Of a DNA stretch of 64,000 nucleotides, positions 4,987 to 52,581 are shown one piece after another; the first letter of the stretch is position 1, and each line of letters starts with the position of its first letter. Under the pieces are notes generated by a model, which saw only the letters and a list, made by a program, of their open reading frames with translations, made no database searches and had not been told where the DNA came from. The DNA is taken from positions 4,224,001 to 4,288,000 of the forward strand of contig CBDASK010000003.1 of assembly GCA_965199495.1 (NCBI GenBank). The letters run 5' to 3'. A program made the translations under genes and the position numbers. This DNA is from Abditibacterium sp. Its GTDB lineage: Bacteria; Armatimonadota; Abditibacteriia; Abditibacteriales; Abditibacteriaceae.

Positions 4987-5376
4987 GTGGCTGCTGTTGA
5001 TAGCAGCCACGTCGCCCTTGGCCTTGACATGAAACTACAAGCCAAAGGAGACAGCAAACAAAAGCGAGTGACTCGAATTGTCCTCGAAGCCGAAACGCGA
5101 GCCGACGAAGCGGTTTTATATGCGAAGTATTTGGAGTTGAAGGAAGAGACTCCTAAGCTCGCGTCAATCTACCAAGACGTGCTCGACCTGGTCGAAGAGG
5201 GCATCGGCCTCGCCTCCGAAATTTCCGATGCTCTCGACGTTCCTCTGACCGCAATGAACAACCGTCTGGCTCACCTCAAGAAGATGGGCCTCATAGAGCG
5301 CGAAAAGGTTGCCGCCCCTGCTGGCGGGCGCCGCTTCATTTATCGAATTAGTTCGACGGAACAAGGAGATGCTTGA
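4987..5376 (+). CDS. Winged-helix DNA-binding protein (start possibly 5029)
   Basis: ASEISDALDVPLTAMNNRLAHLKKMGLIER...GGRRFIYRI wHTH pattern. Confidence 0.75.
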   Translation: MAAVDSSHVALGLDMKLQAKGDSKQKRVTRIVLEAETRADEAVLYAKYLELKEETPKLASIYQDVLDLVEEGIGLASEISDALDVPLTAMNNRLAHLKKMGLIEREKVAAPAGGRRFIYRISSTEQGDA

Positions 5377-6005
5377 TGAGCGATAAAACTTTCGGCGCAC
5401 GACTGCGCCAGATGCGCGAGGCAGTCGGCATCAGTCGGCGTGACTTGGCGGCGCGCGCGCAACTTTCCGAAACGTATATCGAGAAGGTGGAGCGCGGATA
5501 CAATGCGCCGCCGTCGGCTTTAGCGATTGCCGACATTGCGCGCGCGCTCCGAGTTGACGGCGATGAGCTTTTCGCCCTTGCGGGCAAGCTGGCGCCCGAC
5601 TTGGAGCGCCGCTTACGTTCGGAGCCGTTATTAGTGCTGGCCTGTCGTGCAGCCACGGCGATGTCGTCTTCTGACTTGCGAGCCTTCTTGATCACGCAGG
5701 GAGTGAGCGGGGAGAAGATGGATTGGCAGGGCGCCGAGGTGACGATGAACGACGAAAGGCGGGTGCGGCGGGAGATTATCACTTCGGAAATGAAGCGCGC
5801 AGTCTTTCATCTTGACAGTCACGAGTGCGTTTATTGTTCGTCGGCGAAGTTGCTTGAAGTTGATCATGTTCAGCCGTTTTCATCGGGCGGCACCAATGAC
5901 ATTGAAAATCTGGTGACGGCTTGCGAGAGGTGTAACAAGAAGAAGTCGAATCGTGCCACGCCGTTTGTTATGGTGTTTGGGCGATTTCGGGGGGAGGTAA
6001 AATAA
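5373..6005 (+). CDS. XRE HTH fused to an HNH endonuclease
   Basis: N-terminal FGARLRQMREAVGISRRDLA...YIEKVERG; C-terminal CVYC...EVDHVQPFSSGGTNDIENLVTACERCNKKKS. Confidence 0.9.
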   Translation: MMSDKTFGARLRQMREAVGISRRDLAARAQLSETYIEKVERGYNAPPSALAIADIARALRVDGDELFALAGKLAPDLERRLRSEPLLVLACRAATAMSSSDLRAFLITQGVSGEKMDWQGAEVTMNDERRVRREIITSEMKRAVFHLDSHECVYCSSAKLLEVDHVQPFSSGGTNDIENLVTACERCNKKKSNRATPFVMVFGRFRGEVK

Positions 6006-6007
6006 TT

Positions 6008-7345
6008 ATGAAACGAATGCGCGCCTACAAAGTGGAGCTTGCTCCGAATAATACTCAGAAAACCGCACTGCTTCGTCATTGCGGTGCGGCGCGATTCGTT
6101 TACAATTGGGGACTAAACGCCAAGATCGAAGCTCGCAAAGGCGGCGAAAAGCCTCTGTCCGCCCAAAAGCTGGACGGAGTTTTGCGCTCGATCATGGACG
6201 AAGAATTCCCTTGGATGCGAGAGGTTTCGTCCCAATGCCGCCAGGGGGCGCTCGCCAATCTTGAAGCGGCTTACAAGAATTTTTTCACTCGCTGCAAGAA
6301 AGGCAAAAAGGGGCGCGCAACTGGCTTTCCCAAATTCAAAAGTCGCAAGAATGGACTCGGAGGGTTCGTCGTCTTTGGATATACCATCACGAATGACTCG
6401 GTAAAAATCTCTCGCGTCGGCACCGTTCGACTCAAAGAAAAGGGCTATTTACCGATTGGAGGCTATGGAAAAAATTCTGATACCGTGCGCTTTTATGGTG
6501 CGAGAGTGAGTGAGCGGGCGGGTCGATGGTTCCTTTCTGTTCAAGTTGAGGTCGAAGCGCCCGAACCTGATCAGAAGTCGGAGAGGATTGTTGGCATAGA
6601 TTTCGGCGTGAAAACGTTAGCGGTTTGCAGCGATGGCACCACGTTTCAAAGCCCCAAGGCGCTCAAGGCCAATCTGAAGCGGCTGGCGCGCGCGCAACGT
6701 TCGATGAGCCGTAAGATTGAAGCGGCTAAGAAGTCTGGCCGCGCCTTGCGCGAGTGCAAAAACTTTCAGAAGTCAAAGACGCGCGTGGCGAAAATCCACG
6801 CGCGAGTGGCCGATTTGCGGCGCCATAATCTGCACCACGTTTCTCATGTGCTGACGCGAAAATCAAGCGTTTTGTGCATCGAAGATTTGAACGTGGCGGG
6901 CATGGTGAAAAATCGGCATTTGGCGCGCGCGATTAGCGATTTAGGCTTTGGAGAGTTACGCCGTCAAATCGAATATAAATCGGAGTGGCGCGGCGTTGAA
7001 GTCGTGATTGCAAATCGTTGGTTTCCCAGTTCAAAAACGTGTAATGCGTGCGGACTGGTGAATCAGGAATTACAGTTGAAGGATCGAGAATGGAAGTGTG
7101 AGTGTGGCGAGCGGCATGACCGCGATTTGAACGCCGCTTATAATTTGAGAGATTTGGCCGCGAATCGCGCGGTGTCTGACTGTGGAGGGAAAAGCTCTGG
7201 CGATGCGCTTGCGCGTCGTGAAACTATTCCCTGTGAAGCAGTAAGCGGGCTTGAAACTCTGGTTTCTATCAGCCCCGCACCTACTGAGAACAGTAGCATC
7301 CCTGTGTGGGCGGTCGGGAAAAACGGACAATTACGATGGTGTTAA
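6008..7345 (+). CDS. tnpB: TnpB / Cas12f-like RNA-guided nuclease with intact RuvC
   Basis: RAYKVEL...ARFVYNWGL N-terminus, FPKFKS, RuvC-I GIDFG, RuvC-II IEDLNV, zinc finger CNAC/CECG, RuvC-III DRDLNAA. Confidence 0.95.
   Translation: MKRMRAYKVELAPNNTQKTALLRHCGAARFVYNWGLNAKIEARKGGEKPLSAQKLDGVLRSIMDEEFPWMREVSSQCRQGALANLEAAYKNFFTRCKKGKKGRATGFPKFKSRKNGLGGFVVFGYTITNDSVKISRVGTVRLKEKGYLPIGGYGKNSDTVRFYGARVSERAGRWFLSVQVEVEAPEPDQKSERIVGIDFGVKTLAVCSDGTTFQSPKALKANLKRLARAQRSMSRKIEAAKKSGRALRECKNFQKSKTRVAKIHARVADLRRHNLHHVSHVLTRKSSVLCIEDLNVAGMVKNRHLARAISDLGFGELRRQIEYKSEWRGVEVVIANRWFPSSKTCNACGLVNQELQLKDREWKCECGERHDRDLNAAYNLRDLAANRAVSDCGGKSSGDALARRETIPCEAVSGLETLVSISPAPTENSSIPVWAVGKNGQLRWC
7150..7324 (+). ncRNA. 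TnpB omega/reRNA-like scaffold ending in an anti-repeat (tracrRNA-like); 5' boundary approximate
   Basis: Hairpins at ~7200-7219, 7245-7278 and 7281-7296 (CTACTG-AGAA-CAGTAG); CATCCCTGTG (7297-7306) and GGGAAAAAC (7316-7324) are reverse complements of repeat nt 15-24 and 1-9. Confidence 0.75.
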
Positions 7346-7363
7346 ATCCTATCTGTCATGTGT

Positions 7364-7514
7364 GTTTTTCCCACACGCACAGGGATGGATGGAATACCTC
7401 AAGGCGACCGGCGAACTGCTCGATGTTTTTCCCACACGCACAGGGATGGATGGATTGTTTTCCGACCAACTACACCGAAGCGGGCGTTTTTCCCACACGC
7501 ACGGGGATGGATGG
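7364..7514 (+). CRISPR. CRISPR mini-array: 3 x 29-nt repeats, 2 x 32-nt spacers, type I-E-derived
   Basis: GTTTTTCCCACACGCACAGGGATGGATGG at 7364-7392 and 7425-7453, A18G variant at 7486-7514; spacers AATACCTCAAGGCGACCGGCGAACTGCTCGAT and ATTGTTTTCCGACCAACTACACCGAAGCGGGC; 61-nt period. Confidence 0.93.
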
Positions 7515-7723: not shown

Positions 7724-7752
7724 GTGTTCCCCGCGAGTGCGGGGATGAACCG
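7724..7752 (+). CRISPR. Solitary canonical type I-E repeat
   Basis: GTGTTCCCCGCGAGTGCGGGGATGAACCG, 7-bp stem TCCCCGC/GCGGGGA; no partner repeat 61 nt up- or downstream. Confidence 0.85.
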
Positions 7753-11571: not shown

Positions 11572-12131
11572 TCCGCGTCCTCGCGCCCGATGCCCGATTT
11601 CTCGATCACCCTCAGCATCACGAGCTGCTGGTCGTCGCCGTTGAGTTGGCCAAACGCTTTGACCGAAAATGGGCGCTCGTAATCCCATCCGGCGAGGGTC
11701 TTCTCGAACACCCAGCGCGCGATCATCGCGTTTTCTTGCTGAGCGTTGCGATAACCCTGCTGCAATCGCTGGCGCAGCGCCACGGCCTCGTCGTGTTTGC
11801 CTTCTGTATCAAGCTCCTGCGCGCGTGGCTCTTCCAGAGCGGGCGCGCGCATGGCGGCGACGACGGCCTTGCAACGAGTCACAAACTCGCCGTATGTCTC
11901 GTCATCCATCTCGCGCGCATAAACCACGCCGCCGGTCGTCGGCACCTCAAAGGTGTAAACATTCGCGCCCTGCTCATCACGAAAAGCGGCTCTACGCAAA
12001 CCGGCGGGGACAAACGTTTGTTCGACGAGAGTGCCATCAGCAGTGAGTTCGGCTTCGGGCACTTCGGTTGGGGCTTTCGCCACGGGGGCTTTGCGAGTTC
12101 TGGGATTGGAATTAGGTTTGGACATGATCAA
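11541..12131 (-). CDS. Tail assembly chaperone (gpG-like)
   Basis: Between tail tube and tape measure, with a slippery heptamer near the 3' end. Confidence 0.75.
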   Translation of the reverse strand: MIMSKPNSNPRTRKAPVAKAPTEVPEAELTADGTLVEQTFVPAGLRRAAFRDEQGANVYTFEVPTTGGVVYAREMDDETYGEFVTRCKAVVAAMRAPALEEPRAQELDTEGKHDEAVALRQRLQQGYRNAQQENAMIARWVFEKTLAGWDYERPFSVKAFGQLNGDDQQLVMLRVIEKSGIGREDADFLVDDLLAL

Positions 12132-13075
12132 ATCAAAGTGAGTTCGAGCGAATCGGCAGTAAAAGGCACGGAAAAATCGAGTTCGCCGTTGCTTTCAACG
12201 CCCTGCATCGTTTCGTCAGAAGGAAACGGGCCGTGAATCGTCAACTCGAAACCTTTGTTTGCTTCGACATCGCTGCATCCGACGACGATGCTCTCCCAAT
12301 CCTGCGCTAAAACAGAACCATCAAACAGCGCCTTGGCCAAGCGCGCATGAAGCGACATTTCGCCGTCAACTTTTTGCTGATGATCCATCAGTTCAAACGC
12401 AGTGATAGAAGACGGCGCGTTGTCGCCGTAAAAAGGCGTGTTACTTTTGGCCTCGACGGAATAATCTGCCTTAGCTGTAAGGTTAATCAGATAGCGGCGG
12501 TAATTTTTGACCGCGCCAGTGCTGTCGGTCAAGTTGCACTTTTTCACGTCGTGCCACATCAAAGGCGTGCCCAGCGCGCGCAATTGGGCCGGAGTGACAA
12601 CCAGAGCACCTATCTCCTGCCGCTCAATCGCCATGAAGTTGGCGGTGACGTTGAGTTCGCCGCCGCCATCGGCGCTCCCGCCAAAATTGAAATCAACCGA
12701 ACCGGGCTTGCAGTGACGGTAAACGATGGTATATTGGCCTTTGACGACGACGAAAATCGCCAGATAAGGCAACTTGCCATTGGCATCTGGGAACAACTGC
12801 GCCAGAGCAGCCACGTTGCCGGGCCGAACGGCGACCGTGATCGTCGGCTTGCGCATCCCGCGCTTATTATAGGCCGCACCCTGTTGGCCGACGGCGTAAC
12901 CCTTGGAGTTGTTGAGTCCGCGATTGTTTTGCGGAGAATCGGTATAGCCCAGCACGACTGGCGACGAAGGCACCGACGGATAGGCCGCCATCGTGCCGTC
13001 GTCGAGCAGGTCGGGCGGCGGCGCGGTTTCAATCGCGTAAAGCACAGCAACGTCGTGCGCAGGAATAAATGGCAT
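12128..13075 (-). CDS. Major tail tube protein
   Basis: 315 aa, beta-rich; canonical position. Confidence 0.7.
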   Translation of the reverse strand: MPFIPAHDVAVLYAIETAPPPDLLDDGTMAAYPSVPSSPVVLGYTDSPQNNRGLNNSKGYAVGQQGAAYNKRGMRKPTITVAVRPGNVAALAQLFPDANGKLPYLAIFVVVKGQYTIVYRHCKPGSVDFNFGGSADGGGELNVTANFMAIERQEIGALVVTPAQLRALGTPLMWHDVKKCNLTDSTGAVKNYRRYLINLTAKADYSVEAKSNTPFYGDNAPSSITAFELMDHQQKVDGEMSLHARLAKALFDGSVLAQDWESIVVGCSDVEANKGFELTIHGPFPSDETMQGVESNGELDFSVPFTADSLELTLI

Positions 13076-17918: not shown

Positions 17919-19982
17919 TTAGTCGGCGGCGGCAATCAGGGCGGAATCGTCCATCTCGGCAAAGCGGCGCTCTGCCTCGGCGAGTTCGAGTTCCGCCAGT
18001 TCGTCGGCGAGAGATTTCATCTCGGCGGGCGCGTCGGCTTCGGTTCGCACCGTGTCGGGTGCGGTCGCGTCATCGAGGGCGTGCGTTTCGAGCAGATCGG
18101 CCATTTCGTCTTCCAACTCCTTCAAGCGAGAGTGGTAGGTCGTCAGGCGTTCCACGTTCAATTTGCTCAAGACCCGTCCGGCTTTGCGCGAGCCAGCGCG
18201 CAGTTCGATCAGGTCTTCGACACGCTCTTGATACTCTCCGATGGCCGCCACGATCTTCTCGGAGTGGGAACCAAAGGTGGTGTGTTGGAACTCGGTGCCC
18301 AAAGTCGCCGCTTCGTTACGTAACGATTTCGCGGCCTCTTCGGGCGTCTCGTCGGCGCGCATCTCCAAAACGAAATCAACCATCTTGGAAACCATCGCCG
18401 TGAAGCCCTGCAAGTTGGCTTGCAAGAAAGCGAGGCGCTCTTCTTTGGTCGGCGGCACGAGCGTGGTCAGGCCCAACTGCTGCGATTCCGTCGTCGGATC
18501 AAGCACCGACGGCAGCACGCTATAACAAAGTTGATCCATCGCATCGCGCAGGGCACCACCGAGCATCATCTGGCCATCGAACTGCCATCGCTGTTCGGCG
18601 GCGGGGTTGAGAAAAGCCTTGGTTTCGTCTTTGGCGTCCTCTTCATCGCTTTGGGCGAGGTAGACCTTGATTTCGTCAACGCGCTCGTCGGTCGGAATAT
18701 CGTCCCACGATTTGTGACTGCCCAGCAACGCAGATCGGAACTTACCATCATTCTTGGCGCCTTTTCCATCACGGTTGATGATGGTATGCACCTCGCCGAC
18801 ACTGCCTTCCGATTTGTTGATCGCGTTCAGCACCTTCGACATATCCACGATGTTGGCGATGTAACCCTTTTTGACGGCCTCGGTCACGACGTTGGAGATC
18901 ACGCTGTTCTCGTTGTGACCGGCTTGCTTGAGCAGCGACGAAGTGTCCTTTTTGCTTAGCGGCTTCTCGGCATCGCTGGATTTGGGCTTCTCGCCCTTTT
19001 CGTTTTTGCCCTTGCCCTTGTCTGTGGGTTTGTCCGCAAAGCTGGAGAATTTGCCATCGCCGCTACCGTGTTCGTTGATATGTTTGCTCAACTTCTTTTC
19101 GTCGTGACTATCATTGGCGCTGTTGGAAAGCACGTTGTGGAGATCGGCCACCGAGTTAATGTGGCCTTTCTCATACGCTTCCGTCACCACGCTCATCGCC
19201 ACACTATTGGGCTTCACTCCATATTGCTTGGCAATCGCCTCTACTCGTTCAGGCTTGAGTTTTGACGGAGCCTTTGCTCCTGAGCCGGACGACGAACCGC
19301 CCGAACCCCCGGATGAACCGCCAGAGCCGAACTTACCATCGTCGGCGCGCGGGTGCTTCGATTCTTCCCAGTCGGCTTTGGTTTCTTCGCTCTCGTCTTC
19401 CCTGGGCGTCAGGTCGCTCAGCACGCGAACGGCCTTGGCGTAGGAGACGTTGCCCAACCAGTCTTCGGGAACGCTTTTGGCTTCCTCCAGACTGCGAATT
19501 CCGGTCATGCGGAACTCGGCGGGCGTGGGCGTGAACGAAAACTCGAAGATCGGCCACTGGATGATTTCGCCGCACTTCACACCGTCGCGGCGCTTGACCG
19601 CGCGCGTGATCGCGCCGCTCGACCAACTCAGCGCCTCTTCCTCGGTCAACTCATATATTTTGCGCTCGTAGGCGTTGCGCCGGTCGAGGATCGTCGCCAC
19701 CAGCAAACCGTGTTCGTCTGGATGCGCTTTCACCGTCGGCGGCAGCAGAATACCCGAATACGATTTGAGTGCGGGCGTGAGCGGGATCGCATGGTGAAGC
19801 AGGCAATTGACGCCGACGCCACGACTCGCGCCCAGATTGGTATCGGGCGTGAACCAGTCGCCGCCCAGATCGGTGTTCTGCGCGTCGCCCCATAGCAATC
19901 CGTAATCGCCGACAGTCACAAAGTCGCCGTTGGTTTCGAGCGATTTGAGTGAGCCACCAGTGTTGATGAGAAGTTCGTTCAT
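17919..19982 (-). CDS. Prohead protease with a long internal insertion and scaffold-like C-terminus
   Basis: DLGGDWF, LLHH, DEHGL, WSSG, WPIFEFSFTPTPAE protease motifs; directly upstream of the capsid gene. Confidence 0.85.
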   Translation of the reverse strand: MNELLINTGGSLKSLETNGDFVTVGDYGLLWGDAQNTDLGGDWFTPDTNLGASRGVGVNCLLHHAIPLTPALKSYSGILLPPTVKAHPDEHGLLVATILDRRNAYERKIYELTEEEALSWSSGAITRAVKRRDGVKCGEIIQWPIFEFSFTPTPAEFRMTGIRSLEEAKSVPEDWLGNVSYAKAVRVLSDLTPREDESEETKADWEESKHPRADDGKFGSGGSSGGSGGSSSGSGAKAPSKLKPERVEAIAKQYGVKPNSVAMSVVTEAYEKGHINSVADLHNVLSNSANDSHDEKKLSKHINEHGSGDGKFSSFADKPTDKGKGKNEKGEKPKSSDAEKPLSKKDTSSLLKQAGHNENSVISNVVTEAVKKGYIANIVDMSKVLNAINKSEGSVGEVHTIINRDGKGAKNDGKFRSALLGSHKSWDDIPTDERVDEIKVYLAQSDEEDAKDETKAFLNPAAEQRWQFDGQMMLGGALRDAMDQLCYSVLPSVLDPTTESQQLGLTTLVPPTKEERLAFLQANLQGFTAMVSKMVDFVLEMRADETPEEAAKSLRNEAATLGTEFQHTTFGSHSEKIVAAIGEYQERVEDLIELRAGSRKAGRVLSKLNVERLTTYHSRLKELEDEMADLLETHALDDATAPDTVRTEADAPAEMKSLADELAELELAEAERRFAEMDDSALIAAAD

Positions 19983-30684: not shown

Positions 30685-31509
30685 TTAATCCACCCATACG
30701 ACGCCGCGCCTCTCCCACAGATCGGTCATCGTCTCTTCCAACTTCAACAGATTGCGGATGCTGCGGCGGCAGATCAGTTCCAGTCCCGCCTGCGAGCGCG
30801 ACGACGGTAACGCGCCCGATCCGACGATGTCGCCGTTGCGCCCGTTCTCCATCACCATTTTGCCGTAGCGAAAGCAGTTCACCCACGACGACGAATCGGC
30901 GGAGTAAAACGGAAACGCTTCGAGCATCGCCTGGCCGGTCGCCGCCAATCCGTGGAAGCGCGGCAGACCTTTCACGCCATGCGCGCGCACCAGATGTCCC
31001 AGCACCTCGCGCAGCCACGCGCACCGTTTGGCGGTCGACAAATCGTTGCGCGGCGAGAGGCCGATCACGGCTTTCGTATCGGGACGGCGCGCGATCAGTT
31101 CGTCCAGAAAACTCCATGGCTCGTTCTGGTGAAAGACTTCCACTGTGCACAATCCCGCGCCCCGCAAAGCATCGGCGTTACAAAGGCTCTGCTTCATGCC
31201 CTGCGCGATCTCGCTCGCCGTGGCTGTGCGCCCGGCCTCTCCCGGAATTACGTCCAGATTGATGATGTGGGCGATGGGCCACTTCTCCTGCACGCGGCGC
31301 GCAATCGGCAAATACTGCGTAAGCGTCACCGGCACGCCCGCGTTCCACGCCGAAAACGCGCCCGAATCCAGCAGCAGATAACCGGGCATATAAGGCAACT
31401 GTTCCAACCCACCCATGTAAATCTGCGAACACAGGATGTTGGGCGGCGCCTCCGAGGCGATGATGTGTTGAGCATTGCCGTTGCTCGACACGGCGAAAAC
31501 CATCTTCAT
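30685..31509 (-). CDS. dpdA: DpdA-like DNA guanine transglycosylase (TGT fold)
   Basis: LLDSGAFSAW, LDVIPG, FHGLA, PFYSADSSSW; adjacent to que genes. Confidence 0.8.
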   Translation of the reverse strand: MKMVFAVSSNGNAQHIIASEAPPNILCSQIYMGGLEQLPYMPGYLLLDSGAFSAWNAGVPVTLTQYLPIARRVQEKWPIAHIINLDVIPGEAGRTATASEIAQGMKQSLCNADALRGAGLCTVEVFHQNEPWSFLDELIARRPDTKAVIGLSPRNDLSTAKRCAWLREVLGHLVRAHGVKGLPRFHGLAATGQAMLEAFPFYSADSSSWVNCFRYGKMVMENGRNGDIVGSGALPSSRSQAGLELICRRSIRNLLKLEETMTDLWERRGVVWVD

Positions 31510-32822
31510 AGCGGTTTATATCCCGGTGGCTTCGCGTCGTTTCCGTCAATGCCGGATGCTTTAAGAAAATCAATGGACAAACTTGAGCCAGAACCATCCA
31601 CGCGATCATCGTTTTCCATCGCCGTGCGATGAGCCGTCACGACAAGGCCAATGCCGCCGCGCCGGTTCTGGGTGACTGTGACGCAGCATGAACTCGGCTC
31701 AATCGCAGCCATCACGTCGGCGGCGATGCGCGCGGCCAACTGCTCGCAGAACATTCCCTCATCGCGAAACGCCCACAGATAGAACTTGAGCGCCTTCGAT
31801 TCGAGCGCCCACTCGCCCGGTTCGCAGGAGATCGAAACCGTGCCGAAGTCGGGTTGGCCAGAGCGCGGGCAAACGCTGGTGAATTCCTCGCACGCGAAGC
31901 GAATCTGACTCACATCAGGCGCTTCGATGCGTTCGTTACGTAACGAAATCGCTGCTTCGTCCAGCGAGTTCGGGCGTGGCAATGGACCGCTTTTGGGCAG
32001 AGACGCCATTTCTCTCTCTCCGACGTGCAGTTGCGCGTTGAATTCTATCTTGATTTCCTTGGCCGCTCCAGACTCCTGCATTTTGACATTCCATTGAGCG
32101 ACGATTTCGGTAGAACCGCTCCAATCGAAGAAGCCTTTTGCGCGCGTTTGGCACGCCGGACAAAATCCGCAACCGTAGCCCCACGGATAGTGCTGCGTAT
32201 GATTGCCGTTGTAGCAGGTGTGCGTATGCTGAATGATCGTTTCCGTCACGCTCAGTTCATCGGCCAACATCCACGTTTGCGATTTGCTGAGATGCATCAG
32301 CGGCGTTACGATTTCCAGTTCAGAAAAGTCCATGCCCAAACGGAGCGCATTTCCCAACTGCCGGATCGTATTTTCGCGGCAGTCGGGATAGCCCGCGTGA
32401 TCTTCCTGGCAGACGCCGGTGTAAACCCGCGTCGCGTTCTGCTTCATGGCGAACGCCGCCGCCAGCGTCAAAAACGCCAGATTACGGCCCGGCACGAACG
32501 AAGCGGGCAAATGCGCCAATTTGGGATGCGCCTGGCTCACGTCGCCGCCCGTCACCAGAGCCGAATCGGCAAAATCGCACAAAGCGGGCACCTGCGACAC
32601 GAAAAGCGGCACGTTCGCCAGTGACGCGATCTGCGCGGCGAAGCGGCCTTCGATTTCGTGCTTCTGGCCGTATTGAAAATGAATCGCGGCCACGACTTCG
32701 CACTCGCGTTGCGCCAGAAACAGACACGTCGCCGAGTCTTGACCGCCGCTCAAAACGACGATGGCGCGCGGTTTGGTTTCGAGTTGAGAACCGAGTTCGG
32801 GAGGAAGGGGAGAAGTAATCAT
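31506..32822 (-). CDS. queC: QueC (preQ0 synthase) fused to a C-terminal QueF nitrile reductase domain
   Basis: SGGQDS, VPGRN, YPDCR, CY...CGFCPAC; then EFTSVCPRSGQPDF, ESKALKFY, RRGGI. Confidence 0.92.
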   Translation of the reverse strand: MITSPLPPELGSQLETKPRAIVVLSGGQDSATCLFLAQRECEVVAAIHFQYGQKHEIEGRFAAQIASLANVPLFVSQVPALCDFADSALVTGGDVSQAHPKLAHLPASFVPGRNLAFLTLAAAFAMKQNATRVYTGVCQEDHAGYPDCRENTIRQLGNALRLGMDFSELEIVTPLMHLSKSQTWMLADELSVTETIIQHTHTCYNGNHTQHYPWGYGCGFCPACQTRAKGFFDWSGSTEIVAQWNVKMQESGAAKEIKIEFNAQLHVGEREMASLPKSGPLPRPNSLDEAAISLRNERIEAPDVSQIRFACEEFTSVCPRSGQPDFGTVSISCEPGEWALESKALKFYLWAFRDEGMFCEQLAARIAADVMAAIEPSSCCVTVTQNRRGGIGLVVTAHRTAMENDDRVDGSGSSLSIDFLKASGIDGNDAKPPGYKPL

Positions 32823-48515: not shown

Positions 48516-49370
48516 TCATTGAAAAAGCTCCTGTTGTTGGCACTGCTCTTCTATCAACCGAAGTGCAACCGGGTTCATCCAGAGCGCTTCGGAGCGCGTT
48601 TGATTGGTTTGAATGCGACTCGTCGTCTCCTGACATTCCCAGTCCAAATTATCATCGTAGAGCGGGCATCTATAGCCCGACAATAGCACTGGCCCTAAAT
48701 GATTCTTGAGAGCCGCGATCAATTCGAGATGACCGTCGTCGGACATTTCGTGGGCATAGAGCCGCCTTCCATTGATGGCCGATGCTCCGCGCGTCGATTT
48801 CACATAGGGCGGATCGGCGTAAATTAGCGTTTCCGAACTGCGATTGCGGGCGATAACATCCAACGCGGGCCGACATTCGATCTGCGCATCGAGTAAGCGG
48901 GCGCTCGCCACTCGCAAACGTTCAGGTAATCGCTTCCATGTCGCAATTGGCGATTGGTGCAGCGAATCTCGCGCGCGCCATCCGCTACAACCCGCGCTCG
49001 TCTCATCGTCGCGCGACGCCCGTCGAACTCCGACCGCTTGCCACATCGCTACCAATAAACGCCGGGCGCGCTCGACATCGTCGCCTTGAGCGAGGTCTTT
49101 GCGGCACTCGTCATATTCCGCTCGCGCCCAGGGAGTGAGAGCAATCGCTGCCTCGATCTGAGCTGGTTTGTTGCGGATGACTTCAAACAGGTTCACTACC
49201 ATCGAATCACGGTCGTTGATCGTCTCGACATTCGACGGAATCTTGTTGAAGAACACGGCTCCCGAACCGAAAAATGGCTCTAAATACGCGTCGTGGCTCG
49301 GCATATTGCTGATTACCCATTCCGCCAAACGCCACTTTGATCCAGGCCATTTGAGAGAAGGGGCGCTCAT
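48516..49370 (-). CDS. Dam-like (D12 class) N6-adenine DNA methyltransferase
   Basis: LKWPGSK, EPFFGSGAV, IND, YADPPY. Confidence 0.92.
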   Translation of the reverse strand: MSAPSLKWPGSKWRLAEWVISNMPSHDAYLEPFFGSGAVFFNKIPSNVETINDRDSMVVNLFEVIRNKPAQIEAAIALTPWARAEYDECRKDLAQGDDVERARRLLVAMWQAVGVRRASRDDETSAGCSGWRARDSLHQSPIATWKRLPERLRVASARLLDAQIECRPALDVIARNRSSETLIYADPPYVKSTRGASAINGRRLYAHEMSDDGHLELIAALKNHLGPVLLSGYRCPLYDDNLDWECQETTSRIQTNQTRSEALWMNPVALRLIEEQCQQQELFQ

Positions 49371-51832
49371 TGCAAAACCGCCTTGCACAGCGCCCGCGCG
49401 CATTCGACCGAAACCGCGTTGCCAATCATCTTCATCTTGTCCTTTTTGGTGCCGGTGAACTCGTAATCCTCAAAGCCCATCGCCGCCGCGCATTCGTGCG
49501 GTTGCAGCATCCGAAACCGAATGTCCATCAGGCCATAGGTCACGCCATCGCGCTCGAAAACTGCAATCGGCTCCGGCTGGCATAAACCAAAGTGGTCTTT
49601 GGTCGTCACCGTTGGGAGCGGTAAGTCGCACGGTGCCGCGCCCGACTGCCCGTAGAACTGCACCATAAACGGCTCGGCGAGCGCGTAACGGTTCGACGTA
49701 TCCAGCGTGCGTAGCGGCTCTTCGACGGAGTAAACGCGCTTTTCGGCGCGGTCGCTGTCGTCGTGAAATTGCACGATGAACGGTTCACAGAGCGCGTGAT
49801 GTTTGCCGGTCGTGGTGATCGTCGAGAGCGGCGCGTCCAGACTGGCGGCATCGCGATTGTTGCGGAAGATGACCAGAAATGGCTCGCATAAAGCAAGCTC
49901 GCTTTGGGTTGTCAGGGTTGGGAGGCACGCGTCCAAATCATGAACGCGCCCCACGCGATTGTCGCCACCACTGTGAGTGATGGGCATAACGAAATCAACG
50001 CCGCCAAACTTCTTCAGTCCCGCCGCGATGCGCGCCAACGTCTTGTCTGCCAGCGGCTTCTTGCGCCCAAAAATGCTGCTGCCTTCGAGCGACCAATCGA
50101 TGATTTCGCGCGCGGCGCGATGACGATTCTGCGTGAACAGTTCTGGCGTCGCCGAGTGCGTTCTTGTTGGCCAGCGCATTTTTCGCCGACGCGAAGCCAC
50201 GATGAACAACCGCCGCCGCGCCGTGGCTGCTCCGTAGTCAGCGGAGTTGAGCACGTCAAAGTCAACGTGATAGCCCAGTGATTCGAGAGCGTTGCACCAC
50301 GCGCGAAAGACCTCGCCCTTTTTGTGCGGTATCGGGCGCCCTTTGGCGTTGAGCGGCCCCCACGTGCAGTTGTGAACAACCATTCCATCAGCGATGAAGC
50401 TGTGATCTTCATGCACAGTAAGGTCGTAAACCACCACGTTCTGCTGTGCTGGCGTGACACTGCGAACTCTCGTCCAGCGATGAAGATCATCGTTCCACCA
50501 CTCGATGTCGAGGTTTTTCTTCCACTTCCATGTGAGATAGTAGCCACCTTTCCCGTTGATCTCGCGCCCGTTCAGCAACGCAAATGAACCAGCTTTCATG
50601 GGCGTTATTCCCGCAGAAATGCCCATTGACTCCAGTAGCAGCTTCAATCCCACAGCGAGGCGCCGGGACACTGTGCCTGCATACCAGCGATTATTACGCG
50701 GATTGAGATGACCATCCGCCTGTGAATAGCCGTCAATTAAGGCGCGCTTGCACTCGTCTGGGAGCGATAATGCCCAAGTTGGAATCGTTTTGTAGTGCGC
50801 GTGTTCGCCGAAATAGGCCGTCAGCCACTCGGCCATCTCCCGATTTGTAGTTTCAAACACAACTACGCTTGCCCTTTCTTGCCTGTTCCATGTCAAGCCG
50901 CAGACGGACTTAAGTTGGGATTCCAGAAGGTCGGCTTCGGCGTGATTACCACAGATGCGGACCCCATCGGCGCGCCCTCGGCGATGCCGAATCCAGCCAT
51001 CGCCCAGCCACAATCCAACCATTCGCCAAAACGCCGGGTCAAACGGATTGACCACGCACGAGGCAATGATGGGTGCCATCACTGGCGACGTGTGTGGCGT
51101 GGCCCATGCAAAGCCCGAATACCGCTTTTGATACGTCGTCATGTTGCTTCTGTCGGGCACGAGGTTTCGCGCTTCCGTCCAAGATTCCTTTCCTAAAACT
51201 GCTTTGTGGCGACCGCTTGTTCCGCCCCAACATTCGACTTCGATGGGACGACTATAAAACGGATGGTCATCTGTGCATTCGATGATGGAGTTGCCGCCTC
51301 CTACGACGCGCATTGTGTTGGCTACGCGCGAAGTTAATGCGGTGACTGCTCGATAGCGGCCCTTATGGGTCAGGACGCGCATTCCGACCTCAACCTCCTC
51401 AATGGGCAATAATCCATTATCGGTGACGACAACGGTGCCTGACGGAAAACAGAACTCGCGCACGTTCTCGACGATGATATTGTCGATGCGCAACGCATCG
51501 GCCCAACGGACGATATGCCACGCCGATGCGCGCGATTGATCCGACATCGGCACGCCGCCGCGCGCGTTGGAAAAATGCACGCATTCGGGCGAAGCGAGCA
51601 GAATGTTCAGCCGTCCGCCTGGATGCACTTTGCGCGGATCCACGTTATCAAGATTCTCGCATAAGTGGCGCACGCCGGGATGGTTGAGCGAATGCGTTTC
51701 GATGGCGCGCGGCCAGTGATTGACCGCCAGTAACTCGGCAGTTCTTTCCAGATCGGCGCACGCATGCAGCAAACCGGTCGAGAATCCGCCCGCGCCCGCA
51801 AAGAGGTCAGCGGCTTGAAGTGTGTTTTTCAT
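49367..51832 (-). CDS. C5-cytosine DNA methyltransferase containing an intein
   Basis: DLFAGAGG, SPECVHFS, ENV, ARRRLF, RMLQPHE, IGNAV. Confidence 0.92.
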   Translation of the reverse strand: MKNTLQAADLFAGAGGFSTGLLHACADLERTAELLAVNHWPRAIETHSLNHPGVRHLCENLDNVDPRKVHPGGRLNILLASPECVHFSNARGGVPMSDQSRASAWHIVRWADALRIDNIIVENVREFCFPSGTVVVTDNGLLPIEEVEVGMRVLTHKGRYRAVTALTSRVANTMRVVGGGNSIIECTDDHPFYSRPIEVECWGGTSGRHKAVLGKESWTEARNLVPDRSNMTTYQKRYSGFAWATPHTSPVMAPIIASCVVNPFDPAFWRMVGLWLGDGWIRHRRGRADGVRICGNHAEADLLESQLKSVCGLTWNRQERASVVVFETTNREMAEWLTAYFGEHAHYKTIPTWALSLPDECKRALIDGYSQADGHLNPRNNRWYAGTVSRRLAVGLKLLLESMGISAGITPMKAGSFALLNGREINGKGGYYLTWKWKKNLDIEWWNDDLHRWTRVRSVTPAQQNVVVYDLTVHEDHSFIADGMVVHNCTWGPLNAKGRPIPHKKGEVFRAWCNALESLGYHVDFDVLNSADYGAATARRRLFIVASRRRKMRWPTRTHSATPELFTQNRHRAAREIIDWSLEGSSIFGRKKPLADKTLARIAAGLKKFGGVDFVMPITHSGGDNRVGRVHDLDACLPTLTTQSELALCEPFLVIFRNNRDAASLDAPLSTITTTGKHHALCEPFIVQFHDDSDRAEKRVYSVEEPLRTLDTSNRYALAEPFMVQFYGQSGAAPCDLPLPTVTTKDHFGLCQPEPIAVFERDGVTYGLMDIRFRMLQPHECAAAMGFEDYEFTGTKKDKMKMIGNAVSVECARALCKAVLQ
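50369..51451 (-). mobile_element. Intein (361 aa) with LAGLIDADG homing endonuclease
   Basis: Begins CFPSGTVV, ends VYDLTVHEDHSFIADGMVVHN followed by Cys+1; GLWLGDG and DGYSQADG motifs. Confidence 0.93.
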
Positions 51833-52581
51833 CGGGCCGTCACGCTCCCTATAGCGCTGGACGCGGCTTTGCGCTTGATCGCGCGCGCGCGTCTGGCGGC
51901 GGGTGAGATATAGTAGACGTGGGCGACGACCGAGCGCCACGTCTTAGGCTCTCCGCGCTCCGCGATGCCGTTCAGAACGAATTCGCGCAGACGCTCCTGT
52001 TCTTCGTTTTTCTGGCCCGATTTGCCGCGAATGCGATTGGGATAAAGGCCTTTGCTGCGACACTCCGCGATCCATGCCGACTGCTCGTTGTTGAAGGAGA
52101 CGCCATTTTCGACACGCGCCGAGATCGAAGCTGCGATGGAGGCGGTATGGCCCGGCGCGACACACTCGATCCCGTAGGTATGCCGCAACGTTTGCAGAGA
52201 ATGACGCGCGCGCGCCGTGGCTGCCAGCAATTGGGGAAGGTCAGCCAGAGACACCGACGCGCCGAGCGCACGCCAGAACAGCAGTTCGACGGCGCCGAAC
52301 TCGCGCCTTTTGTCGCCACGGCTGCTCCATCGTCTGGCCTTGGCAAAGCCGTCTTCGGCGACCGGGCAACTCTCCCACAAATACGCCGGACGCGCCCGCC
52401 CCGACTTGGCGCAATGGATCGGCACGACGGCCTCGGTCTGGAGTGAGACGCGCCCGCCCTCGAACCGCAGCAAGCGCGAGAAATCGGTCGCGTCGGTCGG
52501 CGTGCAGTGACGGCACCGCAAGCAGGTAATGCCGCGAGCCACAGGAATAGAATCTGGTGGACGAGTGACTTTCGACATCAA
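51829..52581 (-). CDS. Hypothetical Cys-containing protein (paralog of 60486-61361)
   Basis: Shared CLRCxxC...PIxCAKxG and xFNxxQSA motifs. Confidence 0.6.
   Translation of the reverse strand: MMSKVTRPPDSIPVARGITCLRCRHCTPTDATDFSRLLRFEGGRVSLQTEAVVPIHCAKSGRARPAYLWESCPVAEDGFAKARRWSSRGDKRREFGAVELLFWRALGASVSLADLPQLLAATARARHSLQTLRHTYGIECVAPGHTASIAASISARVENGVSFNNEQSAWIAECRSKGLYPNRIRGKSGQKNEEQERLREFVLNGIAERGEPKTWRSVVAHVYYISPAARRARAIKRKAASSAIGSVTAR

Follow-up and report, generated by a model that had tools for sequence, protein, structure and literature searches.

TranC, intermediates between transposons and CRISPR systems, were reportedly described by Jin et al. in Cell in 2025. The accessible text of the reports on this class treats its members as transposon-CRISPR intermediates and includes phage examples such as CauTranC9 (PMC13565253; bioRxiv 10.64898/2026.03.27.714800; 10.1101/2025.09.28.678669). 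Cas12r of the Thermus Lalka phages is, in the available part of its report, a TnpB-like gene of temperate phages placed among structural genes (bioRxiv 10.64898/2026.04.20.719267). Two routes by which a TnpB may gain an array, duplication of its own RNA and capture of an existing array, are left open in the portion of the literature that could be consulted (PMC10691335).

The window, the whole 64,000-nucleotide stretch of DNA that was analysed, carries a locus close to both systems. Like TranC, it has a TnpB-like nuclease within the range of about 300–600 aa and of IS605/IS607 TnpB origin, an adjacent array without adaptation genes of its own, and a right-end RNA predicted to act as a tracrRNA with an anti-repeat. 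Like Cas12r, it has a degenerate 29-bp I-E-like repeat and spacers of about 32 nt. With a probability of about 0.74, we consider the locus a prophage TranC-like dual-RNA-guided system, in which a type I-E repeat was grafted onto the guide RNA of an IS607 TnpB.

The tnpB gene and its prophage setting

Judged by its genes, the window is prophage DNA: a scan of 25 window ORFs turned up genes for the major head protein, the portal, and the terminase. The IS607-type tnpB gene (6008–7345, forward strand) encodes a protein of 445 aa, P0001, and a profile scan of this ORF found TnpB families. The RuvC residues D198, E292, and D373 and the four zinc-finger cysteines are intact, and the catalytic residues are invariant across 9 close homologs. 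The top solved-fold match was ISFba1 TnpB (TM 0.81 on the target, 34% identity). The predicted fold was confident to residue 388, and residues 389–445, whose coding sequence overlaps the RNA scaffold, were predicted to be disordered. A sigma-70-like promoter match (7116–7144, forward strand) lies just before the predicted RNA start, but it is weak, with 2 sites found versus 0.9 expected.

A serine-recombinase motif was present upstream in 43 of the 121 related loci having enough upstream DNA, and a serine transposase motif was absent from the 800 nt upstream of the window tnpB. Neither a serine transposase gene nor an intact GG right end, as found in mobile IS607 elements, was seen at the window locus. 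An HTH-HNH fusion gene (5373–6005) stands two bases upstream of tnpB on the same strand. Elsewhere in the prophage, genes like queuine tRNA-ribosyltransferase and QueC/GTP cyclohydrolase (30685–32822) and two DNA methyltransferases (48516–51940) were observed, possibly for DNA modification. A palindrome-like motif around GTTACGTAAC, possibly an operator, recurs at positions 18310, 20129, 31932, 39458, 44093, and 55526.

The array and the ancestry of its repeat

The array begins 19 nt past the end of the tnpB ORF and runs on the forward strand through repeat 1 (7364–7392), spacer 1 (7393–7424), repeat 2 (7425–7453), spacer 2 (7454–7485), and the terminal repeat 3 (7486–7514). The 29+32 nt geometry stated in the sequence-only reading is correct and the array is real, with three 29-nt repeats, two 32-nt spacers, and a period of 61 nt. 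Repeats 1 and 2 are identical; the single base by which repeat 3 differs is the base of I-E repeats. That reading had compared repeat 3 with a type I-E repeat at 7724. The match count was reproduced (19 of 29 positions; 18 of 29 for repeats 1 and 2), but the closest I-E repeat is another one in the same phylum. The nearest I-E repeats end in GGACCG and agree with the array repeat at 22 of 29 positions ungapped and 24 gapped, leaving at least seven ungapped changes to the closest. A genome-wide search (4.8 Mb, up to seven mismatches) returned only the three copies of the array repeat and one match with seven mismatches.

Cas6e requires the repeat stem. The stem loss that had been claimed was confirmed, the seven-pair I-E stem being down to four pairs in repeat 1 and five in repeat 3; all seven pairs are present in the 7724 repeat and in the five I-E repeats of relatives tested. 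The hairpin energy of the array repeat was −5.9 kcal/mol, versus −10.0 to −14.4 kcal/mol for intact I-E repeats. Among the I-E spacers of nine relative genomes, 167 of 176 were 32 nt long, and the array matches the substrate geometry of type I-E adaptation (29-nt repeat, 32-nt spacers). Descent of the array repeat from a type I-E repeat is well supported by the 29+32 geometry, the 32-nt I-E spacers of relatives, and the similarity to the closest I-E repeats. The proposal that the repeat was co-opted from a host I-E system stands for the I-E ancestry, which geometry and repeat similarity favor, but not for the present host as the source, which has only type I-B. No cas genes were found in the window, in line with what had been noted: the scan of 35 window ORFs gave no cas family besides TnpB's own type V-like profiles, and the sole Cas1 match of the genome lies 1.46 Mb from the window.

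The linker or leader between the anti-repeat and repeat 1 (7325–7363, forward strand) carries CTAT at −15 from the repeat. Some I-E leaders of relatives show the same, but the likeness is weak: CTAY at −15 occurred in 3 of 9 leader rows and the pattern was picked out post hoc. Whole-leader alignments against I-E leaders of relatives were no better than shuffles, and the leader contained no match to the IHF consensus.

The solitary intact type I-E repeat (7724–7752, forward strand) stands 210 nt downstream of the array. It is probably an element separate from the array and, as a solitary repeat unit, a candidate RNA anti-CRISPR. Run X3 of the same study contained a repeat-spacer-repeat contig with this repeat at 0–1 differences. 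A second solitary I-E-like repeat was observed in an intergenic position of a same-genus genome (G003:C29:19200-19228), in which a search found no I-E array or Cas7e.

Guide-RNA scaffold, anti-repeat, and sister locus

The predicted TnpB guide-RNA scaffold (7157–7296, forward strand) lies within the 3′ end of tnpB and opens with a stem-loop at 7158–7172. For the survey of related scaffolds, 105 of 161 sequences had a RuvC-III motif with 330 nt behind it, and 102 of them were distinct. AACGG was found 130–230 nt after RuvC-III in 86 of 100 related TnpB loci, whereas only 4 of 102 have it in the 100 nt that follow, and conservation in related loci ends past it. Read from sequence, AACGG of the relatives is the IS607-type right end. 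The window retains a relic of this end, GAGAACAG (7286–7293, forward strand; GAGAACGG in relatives), now the loop of a small hairpin (7281–7296).

Three bases after the old right end begins the anti-repeat (7297–7324, forward strand), which occupies the ordinary TnpB guide position and is predicted to pair with repeat bases 1–24 in two blocks. When 21,322 windows covering the 64 kb were compared (mean −12.6, sd 3.7), no site outside the array paired with the repeat as well as the anti-repeat did (−35.1 kcal/mol); the next unrelated site gave −31.4 kcal/mol. After hairpin costs, the net duplex gain was −21 for the array repeat versus −5, −9, and −10 for three intact I-E repeats. The fold of 7270–7392 had a z-score of −3.9.

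A pseudoknot between an apical loop and the bases preceding the guide is reported as essential in one IS607 TnpB, according to the accessible text (PMC10711439). The first-hairpin loop of the relatives was AGTTC in 69 of the 85 loops called, and loop base 5 paired with tail base −6 in 69 of 79 scored loci. Where loop base 5 was not C, pairing was kept in 10 of 10 loci, 7 of them Watson–Crick (0 of 20,000 shuffles); after thinning to 52 loci, the latter count was 5 of 8 (2 of 20,000 shuffles). In these counts, the other three of the four pairs are fixed by the selection of loci, and kin are non-independent. The window loop, AATCG (7163–7167, forward strand), is the predicted partner of the repeat end. 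It pairs at 3 of 4 positions with the array repeat end, at 1 of 4 with its own old right end, and at 1 or 2 of 4 with I-E repeat ends; the ancestral loop pairs at 4 of 4 with either I-E repeat end type. Loop and tail read AATCG/GGAT in the window versus AGTTC/GAAC in relatives, which amounts to two compensatory changes (G-C to A-U and U-A to C-G). Among 85 loops, the fourth base was C in no locus but the window one and the sister locus of genome G002, one doubtful call excepted. The array repeat terminates in GG, like IS607 scaffolds.

The change of the repeat end from AACCG to GATGG, pointed out earlier from the letters, was borne out. Since the loop fits the repeat end at 3 of 4 positions and the old end at 1 of 4, GATGG is predicted to substitute for the pseudoknot tail of the guide RNA. 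The suggestion that the repeat was remodelled to pair with the TnpB scaffold RNA likewise agrees with the predicted anti-repeat duplex (−35 kcal/mol) and pseudoknot fit. The window pseudoknot has only three pairs, a short helix, and protein would be needed to hold it. Local folds gave the expected first stem-loop, and in a co-fold from 7151 the loop was mostly paired in a competing structure. An Rfam search returned no match.

The sister locus lies on G002:C52 among prophage head genes and encodes P0007, 67% identical to P0001. It has the same scaffold, whose loop reads AGTCG; a hairpin of four pairs and GGACGG come next, and there is no array. Its single-guide form ends GATGGACGG, and its loop pairs with the distal tail at 3 of 4 positions. 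Behind P0007 (L154:~7260-7330), the anti-repeat and repeat appear collapsed to the short hairpin and GGACGG. A similar RNA-encoded C-terminal tail is conserved in P0002–P0006, which are known as proteins alone; the loop codons read N-R in P0002 and P0005 and S-R in P0003 and P0004. In the tree (39 of 40 rows; P0016, which has no trimming motif, was omitted), P0007 was sister to P0005 with support 100/99, with two long-branch rows inside the group. Because P0005 has the anti-repeat-encoded tail, these sequences make G002 more likely a collapse to a single guide than the ancestral form. A search of 643 kb of prophage loci returned no further match for the 20-nt candidate guide of the G002 TnpB. 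The same prophage-like contig carries, at a distance of about 10 kb from this TnpB, an array of 17 unusually variable 30-nt repeats (L273:8170-9240), whose 16 spacers had no matches in the prophage loci compared.

The array is known at one locus only. In viral contigs, an exact 15-mer scan gave 48 single matches and no array, pattern scans for repeat and anti-repeat gave no second copy, and protein scans gave two distant loci and later none. A pattern search of 401 genomes also returned no second copy. Metagenome (27 of 64 parts) and genome scans, with 80 matches listed each, included none with the array repeat or a CRISPR array behind tnpB. These 80 metagenome and 80 genome loci, the G002 locus excepted, were at most 49% identical to P0001. 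Arrays were likewise missing from all 160 of the more distant TnpB loci, and named phages and plasmids gave distant TnpBs only.

Spacer targets, rival readings, and known systems

The peptide readings of the spacers (YLKATGELLD and CFPTNYTEAG) are correct, and both had been taken for gene targets in other elements. This held for spacer 2, which in the predicted reading frame matches 27 of 32 positions of a tail-tube-like gene in a related prophage of a same-genus genome (G003:C107, L236:1502-1533), but not for spacer 1, which had no match in 31 class genomes, viral contigs, and 643 kb of related prophage loci. Four of the five differences of spacer 2 are synonymous, and about 0.003 chance matches as good are expected in 150 Mb. 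The target gene is a homolog (35%) of the window gene 12128–13075 (reverse strand), for whose protein the atlas gave a position close to tail-tube proteins (score 0.97; family present on 53% of the cluster), with recognition sub-threshold. As this resident gene is only 15 of 32 identical at the homologous site, its sequence indicates that it is no self-target of spacer 2; nine other homologs gave 9–18 of 32. Three of the five mismatches fall within the first 8 bases, so that the true target is to be sought in a relative of the G003 prophage and not in this prophage itself. No closer target for spacer 2 was found. From this match, spacer 2 is likely directed against a related virus, and the system as a whole is probably a CRISPR weapon, still at an early stage, for use against rival viruses.

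Of the 5′ flanks that the sequence-only reading had proposed to compare, a single one is available, that of one diverged target, and it reads G-C-G rather than AAG. In the accessible part of one study, up to half of naive I-E spacers come without AAG, and the last G of the flank is consistent with I-E acquisition (PMC10011333). The G at −1 fits both I-E acquisition and the G-rich motifs of IS607. G-runs occur at the left ends of several related TnpB loci, and the ISXfa1 motif is GGG. When 176 I-E spacers of relatives were compared with prophage loci for an I-E PAM, no matches were obtained. Spacer turnover was also not seen, there being no array variants in run X1, probably the source sample.

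The window genome (G000, 95% complete) contains a single type I-B locus, whose 30-nt repeat is unlike that of the array. The spacers of this locus are mostly 34–37 nt long, and only 2 of 130 are 32 nt, which rules out host I-B as the spacer source by length. No I-E Cas1, Cas2, Cas6, Cas7, or array was found in this genome. Pfam searches for Cas6e, Cas7e, and Cas2e were positive in only 1 of 14 controls, and the absence was therefore examined again: a tblastn search with 12 ORFs from the I-E locus of G006 gave no matches in G000, and its control was positive. I-E arrays are present in 5 of 30 other class genomes and in 1 of 12 within the genus, and Cas1e scored over the cut-off in all four relatives tested. 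The idea that the phage borrows host Cas1-Cas2 thus fails for G000, in which no I-E genes or array were found, and any such borrowing must occur in other strains. That I-E Cas1-Cas2 of other strains supplied spacers in the past seems fairly probable; that they still do so today is rather doubtful.

Some observations on arrays of these genomes stand apart. One host I-B spacer matches 33 of 37 positions of a gene that lies a short way left of the window and apparently belongs to this prophage as well (G000:C3:4220147). Another has a 36/36 match in its own genome (G000:C3:593120). In an I-E array of G006 (G006:C24:164000-167060), the repeat shifts midway from one uniform to many divergent variants.

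According to the reading we prefer, the 3′ part of the tnpB transcript would be the tracrRNA. The anti-repeat would bind repeat bases 1–24, acting in cis on the spacer 1 unit and, likely, in trans on that of spacer 2. GGAT, at the end of the repeat, would pair with the first loop of the scaffold and stand in for the ancestral pseudoknot tail, with the guide beginning after the final GG. TnpB would then cut DNA of related phages next to a 5′ motif, probably G-rich as in IS607 relatives. A type I-E array was the likely source of the repeat. Its hairpin, which competes with the anti-repeat duplex and has no use where Cas6e plays no part, was probably lost for these reasons. The spacers probably date from stays of the phage in I-E-positive strains, whose I-E Cas1-Cas2 would have inserted them; in the present host the array would no longer change.

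The rival readings differ mainly in where the repeat came from and whether it still works. That the repeat was born de novo from a duplicated 3′ end of the guide RNA, from a G002-like single-guide start and with I-E length and sequence by convergence, appears very unlikely. Serial duplication of guide-RNA segments is one named route in the consulted text (PMC10691335), and the P0007 locus does have a single-guide form ending GATGGACGG without an array. However, the 15 bases at the repeat 5′ end have no counterpart in G002 or in the right ends of relatives, yet match I-E repeats, and the exact 29+32 geometry also speaks against this origin. The sister position of P0007 and P0005 (100/99, two long-branch rows inside the group) favors loss in G002. 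Still less credible, indeed extremely improbable, is an ordinary phage mini-array loaded by a host type I-E Cascade, with tnpB as a bystander. I-E systems in relatives and the intact I-E repeat 210 nt downstream agree with it, as does the accessible statement that viral mini-arrays target related viruses; the same text, however, has their repeats identical to the host's (PMC11656645), whereas the exact array repeat form occurred only in G000 among 401 genomes searched. The case the sequence-only reading had named against itself, a host I-E array with the exact repeat, does not obtain: no I-E array was found in G000. The array stem, with 4 of 7 pairs, is unlike the seven-pair stem of Cas6e, and a mini-array would leave the anti-repeat and loop changes unexplained.

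The third rival grants that the TnpB-CRISPR unit once worked and sees it now as a fixed two-guide relic, in which the guides may work but acquisition has stopped everywhere, the altered repeat being no integrase substrate. No I-E Cas1-Cas2 was found in G000, the array repeat is at least seven ungapped changes from the closest I-E repeat, no array variants were seen, and the G002 locus has apparently collapsed to a single guide, all of which fit a relic. On the other hand, the older base persists in repeat 3 while the first two repeats are identical, as expected if spacer 1 joined after the remodelling (recombination could also produce this), and spacers do vary among the arrays of Cas12r, whose 29-bp repeats are similarly degenerate. 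We regard the relic as unlikely, though a good deal less so than the other two rivals.

The locus preserves the parts of a transition at single-base resolution: the old right end, an anti-repeat in the guide position, an I-E-like repeat, and two compensatory loop changes. Together with the collapsed sister form, these parts make the capture route testable by a few swaps, and the locus offers a multi-guide nuclease of about 390 residues. The TranC class and, from Cas12r, the idea of I-E borrowing are already known, which limits the surprise accordingly. A wider and speculative idea, which we hold tentatively, starts from the 4 of 4 pairing of both I-E end types with the ancestral loop: I-E ends may be ready-made pseudoknot plugs for IS607 TnpB. 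A single inverted repeat copy behind a transposon end could then turn TnpB into a CRISPR effector fed by the Cas1-Cas2 of others. This phage family would show the step, the co-adaptation, and, in G002, the reversal, and the 7724 repeat would jam I-E Cascade in the hosts lending the integrase.

In the literature covered, with most subscription papers beyond its scope, we found no IS607 TnpB whose pseudoknot tail is swapped for an I-E repeat end. Compared with IS607 TnpB and its reRNA (ISFba1, ISXfa1), the window locus shares the GG-ending scaffold and the predicted loop-tail pseudoknot but has an altered right end and guides supplied by an array. Cas12n (type V-U4), in the text available, also has its tracrRNA inside a disordered C-terminal tail (residues 389–445 in the window); it is larger, with expanded REC/WED domains, and only 21% identical to P0001 over part of the fold. 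With viral mini-arrays the locus shares two spacers and a related-virus target, as far as the consulted text goes (PMC11656645), and the 7724 repeat fits the solitary repeat unit of RNA anti-CRISPRs in the accessible description (PMC10651486). The array repeat, however, differs from every I-E repeat found, and its own effector adjoins it; no host-identical repeat, seven-pair Cas6e stem, or host I-E Cascade, as in host-hijacking mini-arrays, was found (genome 95% complete).

Cas12r comes closer. The consulted text gives it degenerate 29-bp repeats with I-E elements, 31–33-nt spacers, and no adaptation genes, and proposes use of host I-E Cas1-Cas2 for the Thermus phages too; the Lalka8 repeat agrees with repeat 1 at 19 of 29 positions. 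However, Cas12r has 564 aa without significant similarity to P0001 (E = 1.3) and, according to the same text, works without a tracrRNA, uses the PAM ARG, and targets integrative elements, whereas the window has a predicted anti-repeat and the full TnpB scaffold. LaTranC matches P0001 in sequence over the C-terminal 140 residues only (18–20% in a fold alignment), and the TranC repeats reported in the accessible text are 32–38 bp with subtype unassigned, against 29 nt and I-E-like in the window. In the same accessible text, the TranC resemble the window locus in the TnpB-sized nuclease without added domains, the short array without cas1/cas2, the right-end RNA split into tracrRNA and crRNA, the IS605 or IS607 origin, and, CauTranC9 especially, the location in a phage with spacers matching phage.
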